The position numbers and the translations under genes were made by a program. The notes below the pieces were generated by a model, which ran no database searches, was not told the origin of the DNA, and was given only the letters and a program-made list of their open reading frames with translations. 4,879 nt of DNA from a virus (taxonomy: Duplodnaviria; Heunggongvirae; Uroviricota; Caudoviricetes): the IMG/VR virus record IMGVR_UViG_2744054628_000007. The stretch is one strand, 5' to 3'. Below, piece after piece: positions 1 to 4,879 of this stretch; position 1 is the first letter of the stretch, and the number at the start of each line of letters is the position of its first letter.

Positions 1-1
1 C

Positions 2-184
2 ATCAAAGCAGTCTGTCAGTCAGTGCGTGAAGCCACCACCGCCTCCGGCGTGGATAATGCAGCCTCCCCCCGACTGGCAGACACCGCTGAACGGGATTAT
101 TTCACCCTCCGGGAACGACTGGTAATGATGCAGGCCCAACTTGAAGGTGCTCAGCAATACATAACCGAGCAGTGTTTAAAGTAA
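2..184 (+). CDS. Rz: Rz-like i-spanin (lysis protein), C-terminal fragment; 5' end lies outside the window
   Basis: Frame-2 translation IKAVCQSVREATTASGVDNAASPRLADTAERDYFTLRERLVMMQAQLEGAQQYITEQCLK* closely matches the C-terminus of phage lambda Rz as I recall it (…IKAVCQSVREATTASGVDNAASPRLADTAERDYFTLRERL…EQCR). Stop TAA at 182-184. Confidence 0.85.
   Translation: MKAVCQSVREATTASGVDNAASPRLADTAERDYFTLRERLVMMQAQLEGAQQYITEQCLK
3..125 (+). CDS. Rz1: Rz1-like o-spanin, C-terminal fragment, embedded in the +1 frame of Rz
   Basis: Frame-3 translation SKQSVSQCVKPPPPPAWIMQPPPDWQTPLNGIISPSGNDW* matches the proline-rich C-terminus of lambda Rz1 from memory. Stop TAA at 123-125. The nested arrangement inside Rz is the classic spanin architecture. 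Confidence 0.8.
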   Translation, partial: SKQSVSQCVKPPPPPAWIMQPPPDWQTPLNGIISPSGNDW

Positions 185-270
185 AATCTTAACTACAATA
201 TGATTCATTTTGATGATTGTTTCATAAGGAACAGTGAAGTAAGATCTAAGAGGAGTTAAATTTTATACAG

Positions 271-303
271 TATAATCATAATATTGCAGCAAGGTGGTTA
301 TAA
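271..303 (+). promoter_or_regulatory. Candidate sigma70 -10 elements upstream of trkG in an AT-rich intergenic region
   Basis: Two perfect TATAAT hexamers at 271-276 and 298-303 in the AT-rich spacer between Rz and trkG. No convincing -35 at 17 bp spacing for either (TTGCAG at 284-289 is too close to the second). Weak call. Confidence 0.2.
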
Positions 304-321
304 TTGAAAGAATATTTAGAT

Positions 322-1779
322 ATGAATACATCTCATGTAAGAGTTGTTACTCATATGTGTGGGTTCCTGGTTTGGCTCTATAGTCTTTCAATGTTGCCAC
401 CAATGGTTGTAGCATTGTTTTATAAAGAAAAAAGCCTGTTCGTTTTCTTTATAACTTTCGTTATATTTTTTTGCATTGGTGGCGGAGCGTGGTATACAAC
501 TAAGAAATCTGGCATTCAATTACGTACCCGTGATGGGTTTATTATAATTGTAATGTTTTGGATTTTGTTTTCTGTTATTAGTGCATTCCCTTTATGGATT
601 GACTCAGAACTTAATTTAACGTTCATTGATGCTCTGTTTGAAGGGGTTTCTGGAATAACAACAACAGGAGCAACTGTAATTGATGATGTTAGTTCATTAC
701 CTCGGGCATATTTGTACTATCGGTCACAGTTAAATTTTATAGGTGGTTTAGGAGTTATTGTTCTGGCGGTTGCTGTATTGCCATTATTGGGTATTGGTGG
801 TGCAAAGCTTTATCAGTCAGAAATGCCGGGGCCATTTAAGGATGACAAACTCACTCCCCGCCTGGCCGATACGTCACGGACACTGTGGATAACTTATTCT
901 TTATTAGGTATTGCTTGTATTGTCTGTTATAGACTTGCAGGAATGCCTTTGTTTGATGCTATTTGTCACGGGATTTCCACAGTTTCGCTTGGTGGTTTCT
1001 CAACTCATAGCGAGAGTATCGGATATTTTAATAACTATTTGGTTGAGCTGGTGGCTGGTTCTTTTTCCCTGCTATCGGCTTTCAACTTCACTCTTTGGTA
1101 TATTGTTATTAGCAGGAAAACGATAAAACCTTTAATCAGAGATATTGAACTTCGTTTCTTTCTGTTAATAGCCTTAGGGGTGATCATTGTTACCTCTTTC
1201 CAGGTCTGGCATATAGGTATGTATGACTTGCATGGAAGTTTTATTCATTCGTTTTTTCTTGCCAGCTCCATGCTCACTGATAATGGTTTAGCTACGCAGG
1301 ATTATGCAAGTTGGCCCACGCACACGATAGTGTTTTTGCTGTTGTCAAGTTTCTTTGGGGGATGTATAGGTTCAACTTGTGGTGGAATTAAGTCACTTCG
1401 ATTTCTTATACTTTTCAAACAAAGCAAACACGAGATAAATCAGCTTTCTCATCCCAGAGCGTTGTTGAGTGTAAATGTAGGAGGGAAGATAGTTACAGAT
1501 CGTGTAATGAGGTCTGTATGGAGTTTCTTTTTTCTTTATACTCTCTTCACGGTGTTTTTTATACTGGTGTTAAATGGTATGGGATATGATTTTCTTACAT
1601 CATTTGCAACAGTGGCTGCATGTATTAATAATATGGGATTAGGTTTTGGGGCTACTGCATCGTCATTCGGAGTGCTTAATGACATTGCAAAATGTTTAAT
1701 GTGCATAGCTATGATTCTTGGTCGCCTTGAAATTTATCCTGTTATTATATTGTTTTCAGGTTTTTTTTGGCGCTCCTAA
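322..1779 (+). CDS. trkG: Trk-system K+ uptake membrane protein TrkG (TrkH/TrkG family), prophage-borne
   Basis: The ORF from ATG 322 gives 485 aa starting MNTSHVRVVTHMCGFLVWLYSL…, which I recognise as E. coli TrkG (Rac prophage). It is highly hydrophobic with multiple predicted TM segments and carries the selectivity-filter-like motif EGVSGITTTGATV. Stop TAA at 1777-1779. An alternative TTG start at 304 has a good SD (AAGGTGG at 291-297, 6 nt spacer), whereas ATG 322 has no obvious SD. The region is visibly AT-rich compared with flanking genes. Confidence 0.93.
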   Translation: MNTSHVRVVTHMCGFLVWLYSLSMLPPMVVALFYKEKSLFVFFITFVIFFCIGGGAWYTTKKSGIQLRTRDGFIIIVMFWILFSVISAFPLWIDSELNLTFIDALFEGVSGITTTGATVIDDVSSLPRAYLYYRSQLNFIGGLGVIVLAVAVLPLLGIGGAKLYQSEMPGPFKDDKLTPRLADTSRTLWITYSLLGIACIVCYRLAGMPLFDAICHGISTVSLGGFSTHSESIGYFNNYLVELVAGSFSLLSAFNFTLWYIVISRKTIKPLIRDIELRFFLLIALGVIIVTSFQVWHIGMYDLHGSFIHSFFLASSMLTDNGLATQDYASWPTHTIVFLLLSSFFGGCIGSTCGGIKSLRFLILFKQSKHEINQLSHPRALLSVNVGGKIVTDRVMRSVWSFFFLYTLFTVFFILVLNGMGYDFLTSFATVAACINNMGLGFGATASSFGVLNDIAKCLMCIAMILGRLEIYPVIILFSGFFWRS

Positions 1780-1865
1780 TATATGGCTGATTTATAATTG
1801 TGAGTTTAATATTATGTTGACTCACTCATTGATCCAATACCTAACTTTACCAGCAACACCTCCGT

Positions 1866-1900
1866 CCCCAGTAGCACTGGCTGCTGGGGTGCGTTTTATT
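1866..1900 (+). terminator. Candidate rho-independent terminator downstream of trkG
   Basis: GC-rich inverted repeat CCCCAGTAGC / GCTGCTGGGG at 1866-1889 (about 9-10 bp stem with one G·U wobble, 4-6 nt loop), followed by TGCG and then TTTTATT. The U-tract is offset 4 nt from the stem, so this is only a moderate candidate. Confidence 0.35.
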
Positions 1901-1916
1901 CATAAAGCAAGGCTGT

Positions 1917-2708
1917 ATGAGCGAGAAATTAAAGATAGTCTATCGCCCATTACAAGAATTGTCACCGTATGCGCACAACGCCAGGACGCACAGTACTGAG
2001 CAGGTGGCACAACTGGTAGAAAGTATTAAGCAATTCGGCTGGACTAATCCGGTGCTGATTGACGAAAAGGGCGAAATTATTGCGGGTCACGGTCGTGTTA
2101 TGGCGGCTGAAATGCTCAAAATGGATTCTGTTCCGGTCATTGTTCTGTCTGGCCTGACGGATGAGCAGAAAAAGGCGTACCGCCTGGCAGATAATCGCCT
2201 GCCGATGAATGCTGGCTGGGATGAAGATCTGTTGCGGATGGAGCTGTCGGACCTAATCAATGCTGATTTTGATGTCTCCCTGACAGGCTTCATCCCGACA
2301 GAAATTGATGAACTGTTGACGGATGTTTTGCCCGGTACAGGAAATGAGGAGGAGCCGTATACGACGAAAATTGATACGCCTGTTTATGAGCCGTCGGGCG
2401 GTAAACCGGATATCAGTGAACTGTACGACGATACGAAAACTCAGGAGCTGATCAGCCGGATACGTTCGGCGTCCCTTGAGCCTGATATTGAGAAATTCCT
2501 CCTGTGTGCGGCAGAACGTCACACGGTGTTTAATTTCAGCAGAATTGCGGACTATTACGCTCACGCCCCCTCTGAAATTCAGTGTTTTTTCGAGGAGTCG
2601 GCGCTGGTGATCATTGATTATCAGCAGGCTATTGAAAATGGATTTGTCCGGATGACGCAGCGCATGGTGGAGATCATGCATGGTGGTGAGGAGGAGGAAT
2701 ATGCGTGA
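1917..2708 (+). CDS. ParB/sulfiredoxin-like (ParB N-terminal domain) protein with an acidic C-terminal extension
   Basis: 263-aa ORF. The N-terminal ~100 aa (…YRPLQELSPYAHNARTHSTEQVAQLVESIKQFGWTNPVLIDEKGEIIAGHGRVMAAEMLKMDSVPVIVL…) has the ParB/Srx layout: a conserved N-x-R region followed by a G-x-x-R motif (GHGR) before AA. The ~160-aa C-terminal part is acidic and has no motif I recognise. SD-like AAGG sits 4 nt upstream of ATG 1917. By position (immediately after trkG) it corresponds to ynaK of K-12 Rac, but I am recalling that gene order, not its sequence or length. Confidence 0.75.
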   Translation: MSEKLKIVYRPLQELSPYAHNARTHSTEQVAQLVESIKQFGWTNPVLIDEKGEIIAGHGRVMAAEMLKMDSVPVIVLSGLTDEQKKAYRLADNRLPMNAGWDEDLLRMELSDLINADFDVSLTGFIPTEIDELLTDVLPGTGNEEEPYTTKIDTPVYEPSGGKPDISELYDDTKTQELISRIRSASLEPDIEKFLLCAAERHTVFNFSRIADYYAHAPSEIQCFFEESALVIIDYQQAIENGFVRMTQRMVEIMHGGEEEEYA

Positions 2709-3633
2709 TGATTTTTGCGCCTTTATTCTGACTCACGGGCGACCGGACAAAGTTCTGACTTACCGGACGTTGCGTCGTGCTGGCTATACCGGGAAAATTT
2801 TTATCGTTGTTGATGATGAAGATAAGACACGGCATCAGTACATGGCTGAATTTGGTGAACAGGTGCTGGTGTTTTCCAAAGCCGATATCGCCAGTCGTTT
2901 TGACGAAGCCGATAATTTCTGTGACCGCCGCTCAATTTTTTACGCCCGTAATGCCTGTTTCGACCTGGCAAAACTGGTCGGGTGTAAATACTTCATTCAG
3001 CTCGATGATGATTATCACGAGTTCCAGTTTCGGGTGGATCGCAACTATGACCAGGCCTATTTTCCGATAAGGAAACTGGATGCGATCCTTTCTGAAATGC
3101 TGGCGTACTACGAATCAATACCTGCTCTTTCCATCGCTATGTCGCAGGGCGGGGATTTTCTTGGTGACAATGGCGGCCATGCTTCGTGGGTGAAACGCAA
3201 GGCAATGAACAGCTTTATCTGTTCGGTTGATCGACCGTTCTCATTCATGGGGCGCATTAACGAGGATGTGAATACGTACACGAATCTCGGTCGCTGTGGT
3301 GAATTGTTTATGACGATCGGTGCTGTCCAGTTAGGGCAGAAACAGACGCAGAAAAACAGCGGCGGAATGACCGAGCTGTATCTGGATTCCGGAACCTACG
3401 TTAAAAGTTTTTACTCCGTCATGTATGCGCCGTCGTGCGTAAAAATCTCACTGATGGGTGCCAGCCATAAACGCATTCACCATCAGGTCACCTGGAACAA
3501 CGCTGCAGTAAAAATCCTTCACGAAAAATACAGGAAGAAGACACCCTGCATATCAATGGGGGTGACAAATGATTCCGTATTCGAAAGTCGAGTCTCTGGC
3601 AGCGTGCCGGATGACTGCACAACAAATCGCTGA
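2701..3633 (+). CDS. Hypothetical protein with glycosyltransferase GT-A-like motifs, translationally coupled to the upstream ParB-like gene
   Basis: I prefer ATG 2701 (MRDDFCAFILTHGRPD…, 310 aa) over the track's 2680 start, because a strong SD (GAGGAGGAGGA, 2688-2698) precedes it and it overlaps the upstream stop (ATGCGTGA, 2701-2708). Motif order resembles the GT-A nucleotide-sugar transferase fold: hydrophobic strand FCAFILTHGRPD, second strand with acidic tail IFIVVDDED, and a DxD-like YFIQLDDDY near residue 100. No hydrophobic TM stretch. Function is unverified. Confidence 0.6.
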   Translation: MRDDFCAFILTHGRPDKVLTYRTLRRAGYTGKIFIVVDDEDKTRHQYMAEFGEQVLVFSKADIASRFDEADNFCDRRSIFYARNACFDLAKLVGCKYFIQLDDDYHEFQFRVDRNYDQAYFPIRKLDAILSEMLAYYESIPALSIAMSQGGDFLGDNGGHASWVKRKAMNSFICSVDRPFSFMGRINEDVNTYTNLGRCGELFMTIGAVQLGQKQTQKNSGGMTELYLDSGTYVKSFYSVMYAPSCVKISLMGASHKRIHHQVTWNNAAVKILHEKYRKKTPCISMGVTNDSVFESRVSGSVPDDCTTNR

Positions 3634-3820
3634 CGTTCTGGATGTTGATCTGAACCGACTGAAAGAAAATCGGGAAGCAATGACAGATTTTTATGCGGCC
3701 ATCCGTAAGGGCAGAGCGAAAGGTGAAGCCGAGTTACGAGCGGCATTGTTTAAGCTTGCCAGAAAAGGGGATGCCTTTGCTCTGCGCGAACTACTCAGGG
3801 TGGATAAAAATCAGGACTAA
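3569..3820 (+). CDS. Small helix-turn-helix protein (83 aa), possibly a terminase small-subunit-like DNA-binding protein
   Basis: Strong RBS (GGGGGTGA at 3558-3565, 4 nt spacer) before ATG 3569. The segment MTAQQIADVLDVDLNRL is HTH-like, reminiscent of the N-terminal DNA-binding region of small terminases such as lambda Nu1, followed by a basic helical tail. It overlaps the 3' end of the upstream gene by 65 nt; an alternative in-frame ATG at 3611 would shorten the overlap to 23 nt. Stop TAA at 3818-3820, 3 nt before the next ATG. Confidence 0.55.
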   Translation: MIPYSKVESLAACRMTAQQIADVLDVDLNRLKENREAMTDFYAAIRKGRAKGEAELRAALFKLARKGDAFALRELLRVDKNQD

Positions 3821-3823
3821 CTG

Positions 3824-4810
3824 ATGAGCAGACCGGACTGGGGGGCGTTGCAGCAGGAGTATATTGCTGAATACACCCGCTCCGGTATATCTCCGGTGGC
3901 ATGGTGTGAAGCAAGGGGACTGAATTACGCAACAGCCCGTCGTTACATCAAAAAAACTCCGAAAAATGCGCAGACAGAAATGTGCAAAACTGCGCAAAAA
4001 AGTGCGCAGAAAAAATCTGCGCAGACTGCACAAAAGCGGAACGAAAAATCTCAGGAAAAAAAGCCAGTATTCGATGCGGGCCTGAATGAGGGCGACGCGG
4101 AGGAATTTTCGTTCTGTCCCGATGAATTCGGCATTTCTGACCAGCAGGCTAAGTTTGCGATGCTTGTTGCTCAGGGTAAAAAGCCGACATGCAAGGGGAT
4201 TTGGGAGCATCCAGGTATAAATCAGGGATATTTTGCGCCAACGTATCCCCAAATTCGCGATATTTTTTACCCTACAGTGGAAGAAGTTGCTGCTGACTGG
4301 GGATTGAACGTAAAAATTAATGAGGGAAATAAAGAGGTTCACTTTTATTACGGACGCCAGTATCGGGGAACCACTATCTGCAGATCGATGGAGAAGCCAC
4401 AAACGATCGTCGGTTTCAAAATTGGTAATGCGTTGGTGGATGAACTGGACATTTTGCCGAAGGAAAAAGCCAGAACGGCGTGGCGCAAGATAATTGCACG
4501 TATGCGTTATAAGATTGATGGACTTCGCAACGGTATTGACGTTACAACCACGCCGGAAGGATTCAAATTTGTCTACGAGCAGTTTGTTAAAGCCGTGCGT
4601 GAAAAAACAGAGCTGGCCTCACTGTATGGTCTGGTGCAGGCATCTACTTTCGATAATGAAAAGAACCTGCCAGCAGATTACATTCCTTCGCTTCTTGAAT
4701 CATACCCTCCAGAGCTGATTAAAGCCTATCTTCGAGGACAGTTTACTAACCTGACAAGTGGTACTGTTTACCTGATCTTACCCAGCAATAGTGGACACGC
4801 GGCTAAGTGA
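3824..4810 (+). CDS. Phage protein with N-terminal terminase-small-subunit-like HTH, a low-complexity AQK-rich linker and a ~250-aa uncharacterised C-terminal domain
   Basis: 328-aa ORF. The N-terminus WGALQQEYIAEYTRSGISPVAWCEARGLNYATARRYI follows the pattern of TerS DNA-binding domains (compare SPP1 G1P-like …EY…AA…AGYS…A). Residues ~45-80 (KNAQTEMCKTAQKSAQKKSAQTAQKRNEKSQEKK) are low complexity. It is tightly linked to the upstream gene (TAA-CTG-ATG). I cannot assign the C-terminal domain. Confidence 0.55.
   Translation: MSRPDWGALQQEYIAEYTRSGISPVAWCEARGLNYATARRYIKKTPKNAQTEMCKTAQKSAQKKSAQTAQKRNEKSQEKKPVFDAGLNEGDAEEFSFCPDEFGISDQQAKFAMLVAQGKKPTCKGIWEHPGINQGYFAPTYPQIRDIFYPTVEEVAADWGLNVKINEGNKEVHFYYGRQYRGTTICRSMEKPQTIVGFKIGNALVDELDILPKEKARTAWRKIIARMRYKIDGLRNGIDVTTTPEGFKFVYEQFVKAVREKTELASLYGLVQASTFDNEKNLPADYIPSLLESYPPELIKAYLRGQFTNLTSGTVYLILPSNSGHAAK
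3967..4032. repeat. Cluster of six palindromic TGCGCA-like hexamers at 9-15 bp spacing
   Basis: TGCGCA at 3967, 3991, 4003 and 4018; TGTGCA at 3981; TGCACA at 4027. Each lies in an A-rich context (…AAAAATGCGCAGA…). The cluster sits inside the 328-aa CDS, encoding its AQK-rich linker. Confidence 0.6.
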
Positions 4811-4837
4811 GTAAACTCTCAGTCAGAGGTGACTCAC

Positions 4838-4879
4838 ATGACAAAAACAGTATCAACCAGTAAAAAACCCCGTAAACAG
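4838..4879 (+). CDS. 5' end of the next gene (MTKTVSTSKKPRKQ…), by position possibly a large terminase or other packaging/head gene; truncated by the window
   Basis: ATG at 4838 is preceded by SD GAGGTG (4826-4831, 6 nt spacer). The open frame runs to the window end. Only 14 codons are visible, so identity cannot be assigned. Confidence 0.4.
   Translation, partial: MTKTVSTSKKPRKQ

Follow-up and report, generated by a model that had tools for sequence, protein, structure and literature searches.

We studied a 4,879-nucleotide stretch of an Escherichia coli Rac-like prophage (hereafter the window; IMG/VR virus record IMGVR_UViG_2744054628_000007), which carries, inside a gene resembling that of a small terminase subunit (TerS, gene terS), a dense cluster of the hexamer TGCGCA. 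Comparison of sequences indicates that this cluster is a DNA-level signal and not a by-product of the protein code. The comparison also supports a covariation between the hexamer and the recognition helix of a helix-turn-helix (HTH) domain located at the N terminus of TerS, which is the signature expected of a small-terminase binding array. We consider it probable that the array is the cognate, multivalent binding site of this domain and that it acts as a recognition site of the pac type, the copy in the window being a relic.

A cluster of TGCGCA hexamers in the linker region of terS

The array lies in a 328-residue open reading frame (ORF) and corresponds to nucleotides 144-209 of terS, the same position being occupied in all homologous lineages. 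The ORF, the linker-coding region, the array and its six sites are located in the window as follows.

3824-4810: 328-residue ORF carrying the hexamer array
3956..4129, + strand: coding region of a K/Q/A-rich linker, from the HTH to the Terminase_2 core; predicted disorder at residues 45-69
3962..4036, no strand: hexamers and adjoining A-rich sequence, put forward as the pac-type recognition site of TerS
3967..3972, no strand: site 1, TGCGCA, read as AAT-GCG-CAG (N-A-Q)
3981..3986, no strand: site 2, TGTGCA, decayed, read as ATG-TGC (M-C)
3991..3996, no strand: site 3, TGCGCA, read as ACT-GCG-CAA (T-A-Q)
4003..4008, no strand: site 4, TGCGCA, read as AGT-GCG-CAG (S-A-Q)
4018..4023, no strand: site 5, TGCGCA, read as TCT-GCG-CAG (S-A-Q)
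4027..4032, no strand: site 6, TGCACA, decayed, read as ACT-GCA-CAA; TGCGCA in relatives such as L004 and L058

An earlier note, made on the window alone, had described six TGCGCA-like hexamers at 3967-4032, and this span proved exact. Four copies are perfect (starts at 3967, 3991, 4003 and 4018) and two have one mismatch (TGTGCA at 3981 and TGCACA at 4027). Since close relatives (e.g. L058 and L071) have an exact TGCGCA at all six positions, sites 2 and 6 are regarded as decayed, with a single transition separating each from the consensus. The same four exact and two decayed copies are found in the E. coli allele that is commonest among intact ones. In relatives, site 2 is TGCGCA read as ATG-CGC (M-R), a reading frame unlike that of the other sites. 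Outside the array, a single further TGCGCA occurs in the window, at 1970, and none of 3000 first-order Markov simulations of the window gave at least four exact hexamers or at least six TGYRCA within 66 bp.

As the note had also stated, A-runs stand beside most copies, the consensus being aaa(C)TGCGCA(R)a. The spacing of one helical turn that it had proposed is true only loosely: the start-to-start distances are 14, 10, 12, 15 and 9 bp (12 bp on average), irregular and without helical phasing of the copies. In the lineages compared, peaks of spacing were seen at 7, 9, 12 and 14 bp. Tandem Repeats Finder detected weak periodicity only, of 12 bp (2.3 copies) and of 36 bp (2.1 copies). A 36-bp duplication may have helped to build the E. 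coli array, which is not a simple tandem repeat.

Conservation of the hexamer beyond the needs of the protein

To weigh a cis-acting site against a mere protein linker, the earlier note had suggested comparing homologous genes for conservation of the DNA repeats at synonymous positions. This comparison was run on homologues gathered from GTDB genomes, annotated phages and IMG/VR, and it favours a cis-acting site. TerS proteins 36-55% identical to that of E. coli (from Superficieibacter, Serratia, Buttiauxella, Klebsiella phages and PHB10) are encoded by genes with three to six TGCGCA at the same place. Aeromonas phage phiARM81mr, whose TerS has the N-terminal domain alone in common with the E. 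coli protein, also has seven TGCGCA there. In every such homologue the array is found just past codon 44 despite differing linker peptides; the linker varies in length and sequence, and the hexamer is kept.

The hexamer is moreover read in all three frames, even among homologues with no more than 40-55% identity. Over 58 lineages, TGCGCA was found 243 times as nnT-GCG-CAr (X-A-Q), 65 times as nTG-CGC-Ann ([LMV]-R-x) and 24 times as TGC-GCA (C-A). When codons were resampled from the phage codon usage with the protein kept fixed, the shuffled sequences held on average 0.2-0.7 TGCGCA (about 0.5), against three to seven observed. For nine of the 11 lineages with arginine at TerS residue 39 (R-type, see below), the observed count was reached in none of 3000 shuffles; for the other two, it was reached in 4/3000 and 2/3000. 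We also compared the codons used for X-A-Q in eight lineages selected by protein: the form nnT-GCG-CAr accounted for 28 of 30 occurrences in the linkers and for 5 of 41 in the rest of these loci (Fisher test, 2e-12). In Pasteurella phage Pmp11, the linker CEQNCETAN...NCETNCESNCETAK is the translation of about nine TGCGAA repeats; judged by its sequence, this peptide is dictated by the repeats and makes sense only so. The shuffles, the codon contrast and the use of three frames together reject the alternative offered in the earlier note, namely that the cluster is just the DNA image of a low-complexity linker rich in A, Q and K.

Frameshifted linker variants (P0036, P0038, P0040, P0042 and P0007 (L190/L191)) were considered as a natural experiment and were not used. 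The variants of the P0036 type keep the DNA and read the linker in another frame between A-runs (e.g. NSEKCAERNAQNCAKKCAKKKLRRLRK). They come from single Logan/ENA assemblies, with shifts located at A-runs and, in one case, also inside the HTH, so that they are probably homopolymer sequencing errors. Many TerS fragments of 44-77 residues found in databases stop within the linker. The A-runs of the array seem especially prone to sequencing error, or possibly to real slippage.

An N-terminal HTH domain precedes the array

The first hexamer lies 11 bp past a 132-bp stretch coding for the HTH; counted in codons, the array starts four after this region. The domain and a neighbouring small ORF are placed as follows.

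3824..3955, + strand: 44-residue N-terminal HTH domain of TerS; recognition helix Y35-I42, YATARRYI, in which R39 tracks specificity
3569-3820, + strand: 83-residue ORF with a partial match to phrog_309, 'terminase small subunit'

AlphaFold2, run on a 40-sequence alignment, predicted helices at residues 6-20, 24-31 and 35-42, with a predicted local distance difference test score (pLDDT) of 84-89, followed by a disordered tail (pLDDT below 50 at linker residues 53-69). On this model, helix 3 (YATARRYI) is the presumptive recognition helix. The best Foldseek matches were HTH DNA-binding domains (DeoR/SorC, Aca1, sigma region 4 and IstA), none of them significant. NCBIfam gave a sub-threshold match to the HTH of IS66 TnpA, and a PDB sequence search with the N-terminal domain returned nothing significant. 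What the fold and sequence searches support goes no further than a generic three-helix HTH.

A profile search of 1.84 billion representative proteins placed the N-terminal domain in 291 clusters of a 50%-identity library. An earlier profile search of a 5.8-billion-protein database had returned mostly truncated fragments of 44-77 residues; it was used for the structure alignment and not for diversity. Carriers of the domain include Shiga toxin (Stx) phages of the 933W/Sakai type and phages of Klebsiella, Yersinia, Aeromonas and Pasteurella.

The 83-residue protein was also tried as reader of the array and was rejected, being without a homologue in 11 other array-bearing loci. A homologue lies upstream of terS in only 3 of the 16 loci examined (E. 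coli, Superficieibacter and Serratia), and arrays without it were found in the Klebsiella, Yersinia, PHB10, Providencia, RothC, Pmp11, ARM81mr, Stx, Buttiauxella and Erwinia-type loci. This leaves the TerS N-terminal domain as the sole constant partner of the array. The ORF matches only positions 145-218 of the 319-position phrog_309 profile and overlaps the end of the upstream glycosyltransferase gene; its RefSeq version is shorter (69 residues).

The recognition helix covaries with the hexamer

We compared the helix with the motif that follows it, in DNA retrieved by protein similarity alone. In every case, helices of the A-R-R-Y type were followed by three to seven TGCGCA and no TGCGAA/TTCGCA, while those of the A-K-R-Y type were followed by five to eight TGCGAA/TTCGCA and at most one TGCGCA. 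The latter group comprises Yersinia, Providencia, Klebsiella RothC and Pasteurella Pmp11, and its motif is often the palindrome TGCGAATTCGCA. In a wider DNA set, A-R-R-[YH] helices went with 3-10 TGCGCA and 0-1 TGCGAA/TTCGCA, the sole exception being L276, where a second copy of the N-terminal domain is present together with five TGCGCA. K-type and R-type domains may share about 84% identity outside residue 39. Since helices such as YSTARRYIKI still pair with TGCGCA, residue 39 would be the only consistent difference between the two types.

The motifs themselves also led back to the domain. Among the 120 first-listed TGCGCA triplets in 2.9 million viral contigs, 71 lay at most 450 nucleotides from an N-terminal domain, and most of the remaining ones that were inspected were perfect tandem repeats in unrelated repeat proteins. 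For TGCGAA, 5 of the 120 first-listed triplets in IMG/VR viral contigs adjoined the domain, and all five had an A-K-R-[YH] helix.

Covariation was then scored library-wide on 100 distinct N-terminal domains, with linker peptide signatures as a proxy for DNA. Linkers of the 77 R-type domains were TGCGCA-like in 59 cases, TGCGAA-like in none and neither in 18; for K-type domains, the corresponding numbers were 1, 12 and 6 (Fisher test, 8e-13, kinship ignored).

A third combination was observed in Stx phages of the 933W/VT2-Sakai type, in which four copies of (C/T)GATCAT, spaced exactly 12 bp apart, come after the helix NTARTRIKM, with one or two TGCGCA behind them. In the terS genes of VT2-Sakai and phi345 (L185/L186), the GATCAT repeats occupy nucleotides 139-184, encode IDHEIDHKTDHEIDHD and contain the Dam sequence GATC. 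Their codon shuffle was marginal (126/3000) because the peptide partly forces the GATCAT motif. A Stx-like N-terminal domain with the helix GTARRYIKL was followed by six TGCGCA.

The array is the densest hexamer cluster of an intact phage and is joined to unrelated TerS cores

In the 38.7-kb genome of the intact phage vB_EcoS-666R9 (ON470614), TGCGCA occurs 19 times, and outside terS never more than once within 80 bp. A scan of all hexamers in this genome ranked the terS array first, as the densest cluster, and in Yersinia phage vB_YenM_210.17 (OM046625) the TGCGAA cluster of terS also ranked first. Two further clusters were seen in ON470614 (L188): TAACGC/GCGTTA repeats at about 9208-9240, inside the replication gene O, resemble ori iterons, and AAGTAC/GTACTT repeats at 7695-7740, about 70-110 bp from a cI-like repressor gene (cI/cro), resemble operators. 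Since these next-ranked clusters look like iterons and operators, the scan seems to find genuine protein-binding arrays.

The HTH and its array are joined to cores of different families: phrog_51/Terminase_2 in E. coli, Klebsiella and Yersinia, phrog_32222 in Providencia, and phrog_370, without a Pfam match, in Stx phages, phiARM81mr, RothC and Pmp11. In P0288, an N-terminal domain with the helix ARRHIKN and an AQ-rich linker precedes what is, by eye only, an Sf6/Gally-like DNA-binding region (SDYLPEVAEDICNLLIEGESL), which suggests a fourth core family.

Additional clusters were found in some relatives. The Klebsiella-type terS (L096/L099) has a second small cluster of three TGCGCA at nucleotides 360-403, in the region coding for Terminase_2 (VAQAIAQQQKASIVRT); the same place holds two TGCGCA in PHB10 (L098, nucleotides 348-365) and none in the E. 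coli type. This second cluster could be the second arm of a bipartite site. Erwinia/Izhakiella TerS proteins of the Terminase_2 family (L008/L009) begin with a second, unrelated type of N-terminal HTH (MSKPDEKAIERDF...GWIR). At the same position, nucleotides 142-193, their genes carry three GGGGCA and an inverted TGCCCC, all with A-runs. In L194 (nucleotides 2091-2178), a high-GC relative of the MSKPDEKAIERDF-type domain is followed by five or six TGCGCA. The layout of a reader domain with an array downstream may thus be general.

A deletion has fused terS to terL in the window

The 328-residue ORF that carries the array is a chimera, matching small-terminase families over residues 1-122 and families of the large subunit (TerL, gene terL) over residues 126-316. 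Alignment to the intact phage vB_EcoS-666R9 (ON470614; locus L001) matched window 1-4189 to L001 502-4690 and window 4189-4772 to L001 5516-6099. The parts of the fusion are the following.

4130..4189, + strand: first part of the canonical DNA-binding region of Terminase_2 type (GISDQQAKFAMLVAQGKKPT), cut off by the deletion (alignment to L001)
4189..4190, no strand: deletion junction (alignment to L001)
4190..4771, + strand: fragment of the large terminase ATPase domain (Terminase_6N)
4772..4879, no strand: end of an IS3 element, truncating terL

The 826-bp deletion, with 1 bp of microhomology, puts terS codon 122 in frame with terL from about codon 39 on. TerS thereby lacks its C-terminal two thirds, and TerL its first ~39 residues, among them the Walker A motif GFGSGKT (TerL residues 26-32). 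From the DNA-binding region that precedes the Terminase_2 match, the window keeps only the first ~20 residues. The intact TerS homologue has 364 residues, made of the N-terminal domain (1-44), the K/Q/A-rich linker and the Terminase_2 core (122-321); it matches Pfam Terminase_2 (E = 2.4e-8, above the gathering score) and also phrog_51. The terS-terL region is present in about 751 of 5426 complete E. coli genomes (~14%).

The earlier note had taken the ORF for a gene like that of a small terminase subunit, and this needs correction: the ORF is a terS-terL deletion fusion truncated by IS3. With Walker A lost and terL cut short, the prophage is unable to package its own DNA. Its terminase genes being broken, any action of the array, here a relic, would have to be in trans.

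Proposed function of the array

The earlier note had raised the possibility of a packaging site, and this reading gains support from the synonymous-position test and from the covariation of the helix. Beyond a cognate pair of HTH and hexamer, all steps, including physical binding, TerS stoichiometry and initiation of packaging, are inferred. We propose that intact TerS oligomerises via its Terminase_2 core and displays several HTH domains on flexible basic linkers, forming tethers of 35-60 residues, and that each HTH would bind one hexamer. The multivalent contact between TerS and the array would mark phage DNA for cleavage by TerL and for headful packaging. The canonical Terminase_2 DNA-binding domain, which is non-specific in SF6 (PMC4737164), would then engage neighbouring DNA, and TerL would be recruited and cut nearby. 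Because the tethers would be flexible, copy number (3-10) and spacing (7-27 bp) could drift while the hexamer is held. The site would be overprinted on codons of a disordered linker, where the conflict between protein and DNA constraints is minimal. For the relic in the window, activity would be conceivable if a related phage supplied TerS in trans.

Reader and site lie within about 200 bp and would therefore recombine as one unit. We put forward tentatively, as a possibility slightly short of even chances, that HTH and array form a horizontally mobile cassette for packaging specificity, with a near single-residue code, which has been grafted onto unrelated cores, including those of Stx phages. 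In such a code, Arg at residue 39 would specify TGCGCA, Lys would specify TGCGAA, and the R-T-R helix would specify GATCAT. During coupled transcription and translation, the nascent reader domain would moreover emerge beside its own site, and loading in cis would be favoured.

The TerL of this family is of the Terminase_6N/6C type and shows 40-51% identity to its counterparts in Kagunavirus, Jersey-like and Gluttony-like siphophages; a PDB sequence search with it gave no match. TerL clades generally track packaging strategy. Gluttony and its relatives we take to be Dhillonviruses. One Dhillonvirus was reported by PhageTerm to be headful with a pac site (PMC13348001). For the Gally prophage of E. 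coli LF82, pac has been placed within terS by means of a peak in coverage (PMC9928086). The Gally data were rejected as packaging-end data for the present family and serve as a precedent only, its TerS being a 140-residue protein of the Sf6 type without the N-terminal domain or the array.

Several points weigh against a role as TerS packaging site. The terminase of the window is non-functional, and the spacing of the hexamers is irregular, from 7 to 27 bp. The covariation statistics ignore phylogeny and, library-wide, rest on a peptide proxy. About a quarter of the N-terminal domains, among them ~18 of the 77 of R-type, have no array signature in the linker, and two A-K-R-H helices are exceptions, the P0368 linker being TGCGCA-like and the L312 motifs being mixed. 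Headful packaging in this family is presumed from the similarity of TerL (~40-51%) to siphophage groups. In the open-access literature, we found no report of binding, footprinting or packaging ends for phages with the N-terminal domain, and for a 933W-like phage PhageTerm gave only 'Mu-like' host-DNA termini (PMC7946995). Neither did we find a description of the domain or of the array in that literature, an absence that is not proof of novelty.

Other explanations of the array

The TerS HTH could bind the array mainly for autoregulation of terS-terL or for control of the late operon and not for initiation of packaging. The covariation points to a pairing of protein and site and not to a downstream function; the pac region of SPP1 overlaps promoters of the terminase operon (PMC4737164), and a protein bound within a transcribed gene could be a roadblock. 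However, what stays constant over three or four unrelated cores is that the partner is a small terminase, a protein whose defining role is genome recognition (PMC9611059), and no promoter or terminator evidence turned up, none having been sought. A regulatory role would also be compatible with packaging, as a dual role, and we judge regulation as the main role to be unlikely. That the array is bound by another protein, either the HTH-like 83-residue protein or a host factor, we regard as very unlikely. The 83-residue ORF does match a small-terminase PHROG in part and adjoins terS in E. coli, Superficieibacter and Serratia, but most array-bearing loci lack its homologue and the motif tracks the recognition-helix residue of the TerS N-terminal domain. 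A host factor, for its part, would leave the switches of motif among phages of related hosts unexplained.

The two remaining explanations do without a protein reader. A neutral repeat, arising as the image of an A-Q-K linker or by recent tandem duplication and without function at the DNA level, would fit the low complexity and disorder of the linker, the weak periodicity seen by Tandem Repeats Finder and the duplication that probably helped to build the E. coli array. It is hardly tenable in view of the shuffles, the codon contrast between linkers and other parts of the loci, the three frames and the covariation with the HTH; moreover, the spacers differ in length and sequence while the hexamer is kept. 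Selection could also act on an RNA or single-stranded DNA structure formed by pairing of the self-complementary hexamers. The folding energy computed for the array of the window is -29.8 kcal/mol, compared with -16.4 kcal/mol in shuffled sequences (z = -5.0), and other TGCGCA arrays have z of about -3 to -3.5. Excess folding is nevertheless what a repeated palindrome gives automatically, the predicted pairings differ between lineages, and arrays of direct, non-palindromic TGCGAA are without excess (z = +1.5 for Pmp11 and -0.6 for Yersinia). What is conserved is the identity of the hexamer and not compensatory changes, and no Rfam match was obtained, so we find a structural explanation highly improbable.

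Comparison with known packaging sites

In phage P1, the pac hexamers are TGATCA/G, lie in two clusters flanking the cut site and are under the control of Dam methylation. The architecture of the array is nearest to that of P1 pac, in which seven hexanucleotide repeats lie inside the small-terminase gene pacA (PMC11260489). The array studied here resembles it by its multiple short hexamers inside the small-terminase gene (six in the window, four of them exact, and 3-10 in relatives), and the Stx variant of the cassette has hexamers containing GATC, with (C/T)GATCAT repeated four times. It differs in that TGCGCA has no Dam or Dcm site and TGCGAA no GATC, and in that arrays of the E. coli type consist of one cluster. 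Being of the Terminase_2 family with an added HTH, the present TerS is probably not a homologue of PacA.

In SPP1, direct repeats lie at or near the 5' part of terS and the ring of HTH domains is thought to engage several DNA contacts (PMC4737164). The intact TerS here shares the Terminase_2 core with G1P. In SF6, the DNA-binding domain is weak and non-specific, the box repeats have little effect and specificity was attributed to intrinsically bent DNA (PMC4737164). The present TerS, by contrast, carries at its N terminus an extra HTH, some 100 residues before the canonical DNA-binding region, and this HTH covaries with an explicit hexamer. The array lies within the gene, whereas the pac of SPP1/SF6 spans the promoter and the 5' end, and the protomers of those systems are 15-21 kDa against 364 residues here.

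Recognition helix and R site vary together among lambda, 21 and N15, and so define classes of packaging specificity (PMC4669245). The helix-site classes described here recall those of cosB and gpNu1, as an analogy of mechanism and not as homology. Lambda is a cos, unit-length system with a winged-HTH TerS of another family, in which three R sites of fixed geometry, with an integration host factor (IHF) site between them, lie upstream of the Nu1 coding region, by cosN; here, 4-10 irregular hexamers lie in coding DNA. No cos-type architecture was seen at the array, no search having been aimed at one.

We know of no separate N-terminal reader domain in the TerS of P22. The P22 pac lies inside terS (PMC9611059) and is testable by synonymous 'wobble' recoding (PMC11260489). 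The recognition site is thus embedded in the small-terminase coding sequence in both cases, but that of P22 is a single asymmetric 22-bp element in gene 3, without a repeat array, and its TerS has another fold. In vitro, TerS generally binds pac DNA weakly and without specificity; in P22, Sf6, SPP1 and SF6 the binding is weak and largely sequence-independent (PMC9611059). Compared with these systems, the array family appears to be a pac or cosB-like TerS site in a new form, with a dedicated HTH and an explicit hexamer.

The R, K and R-T-R variants of the helix offer a natural mutational series for DNA recognition by headful phages. If the cassette proposal is true, pac sites and packaging specificities would be readable from sequence for hundreds of enterobacterial prophages, and defective prophages such as this one would be trans-activatable hotspots of lateral transduction. 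Prediction of pac sites would help to forecast the lateral or generalised transduction of nearby chromosomal, virulence and resistance genes. The array would also illustrate cleanly how a cis-acting DNA signal can be written over the codons of a disordered linker.

Other genes of the window

Upstream of the terminase region, the window contains three further genes.

304-1779: trkG, potassium transporter
1917-2708: protein with a ParB-N domain
2680-3633: TET-associated glycosyltransferase (TAGT) family protein; RefSeq label 'GREB1-related'

The ParB-N and TAGT genes overlap by 29 bp and lie directly upstream of the terminase genes. No TET/JBP gene was in view beside this pair, which may be a DNA-modification module or a packaging accessory. 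The trkG gene is prophage cargo located between the lysis and packaging modules, as in Rac-like phages, and related records are annotated likewise.

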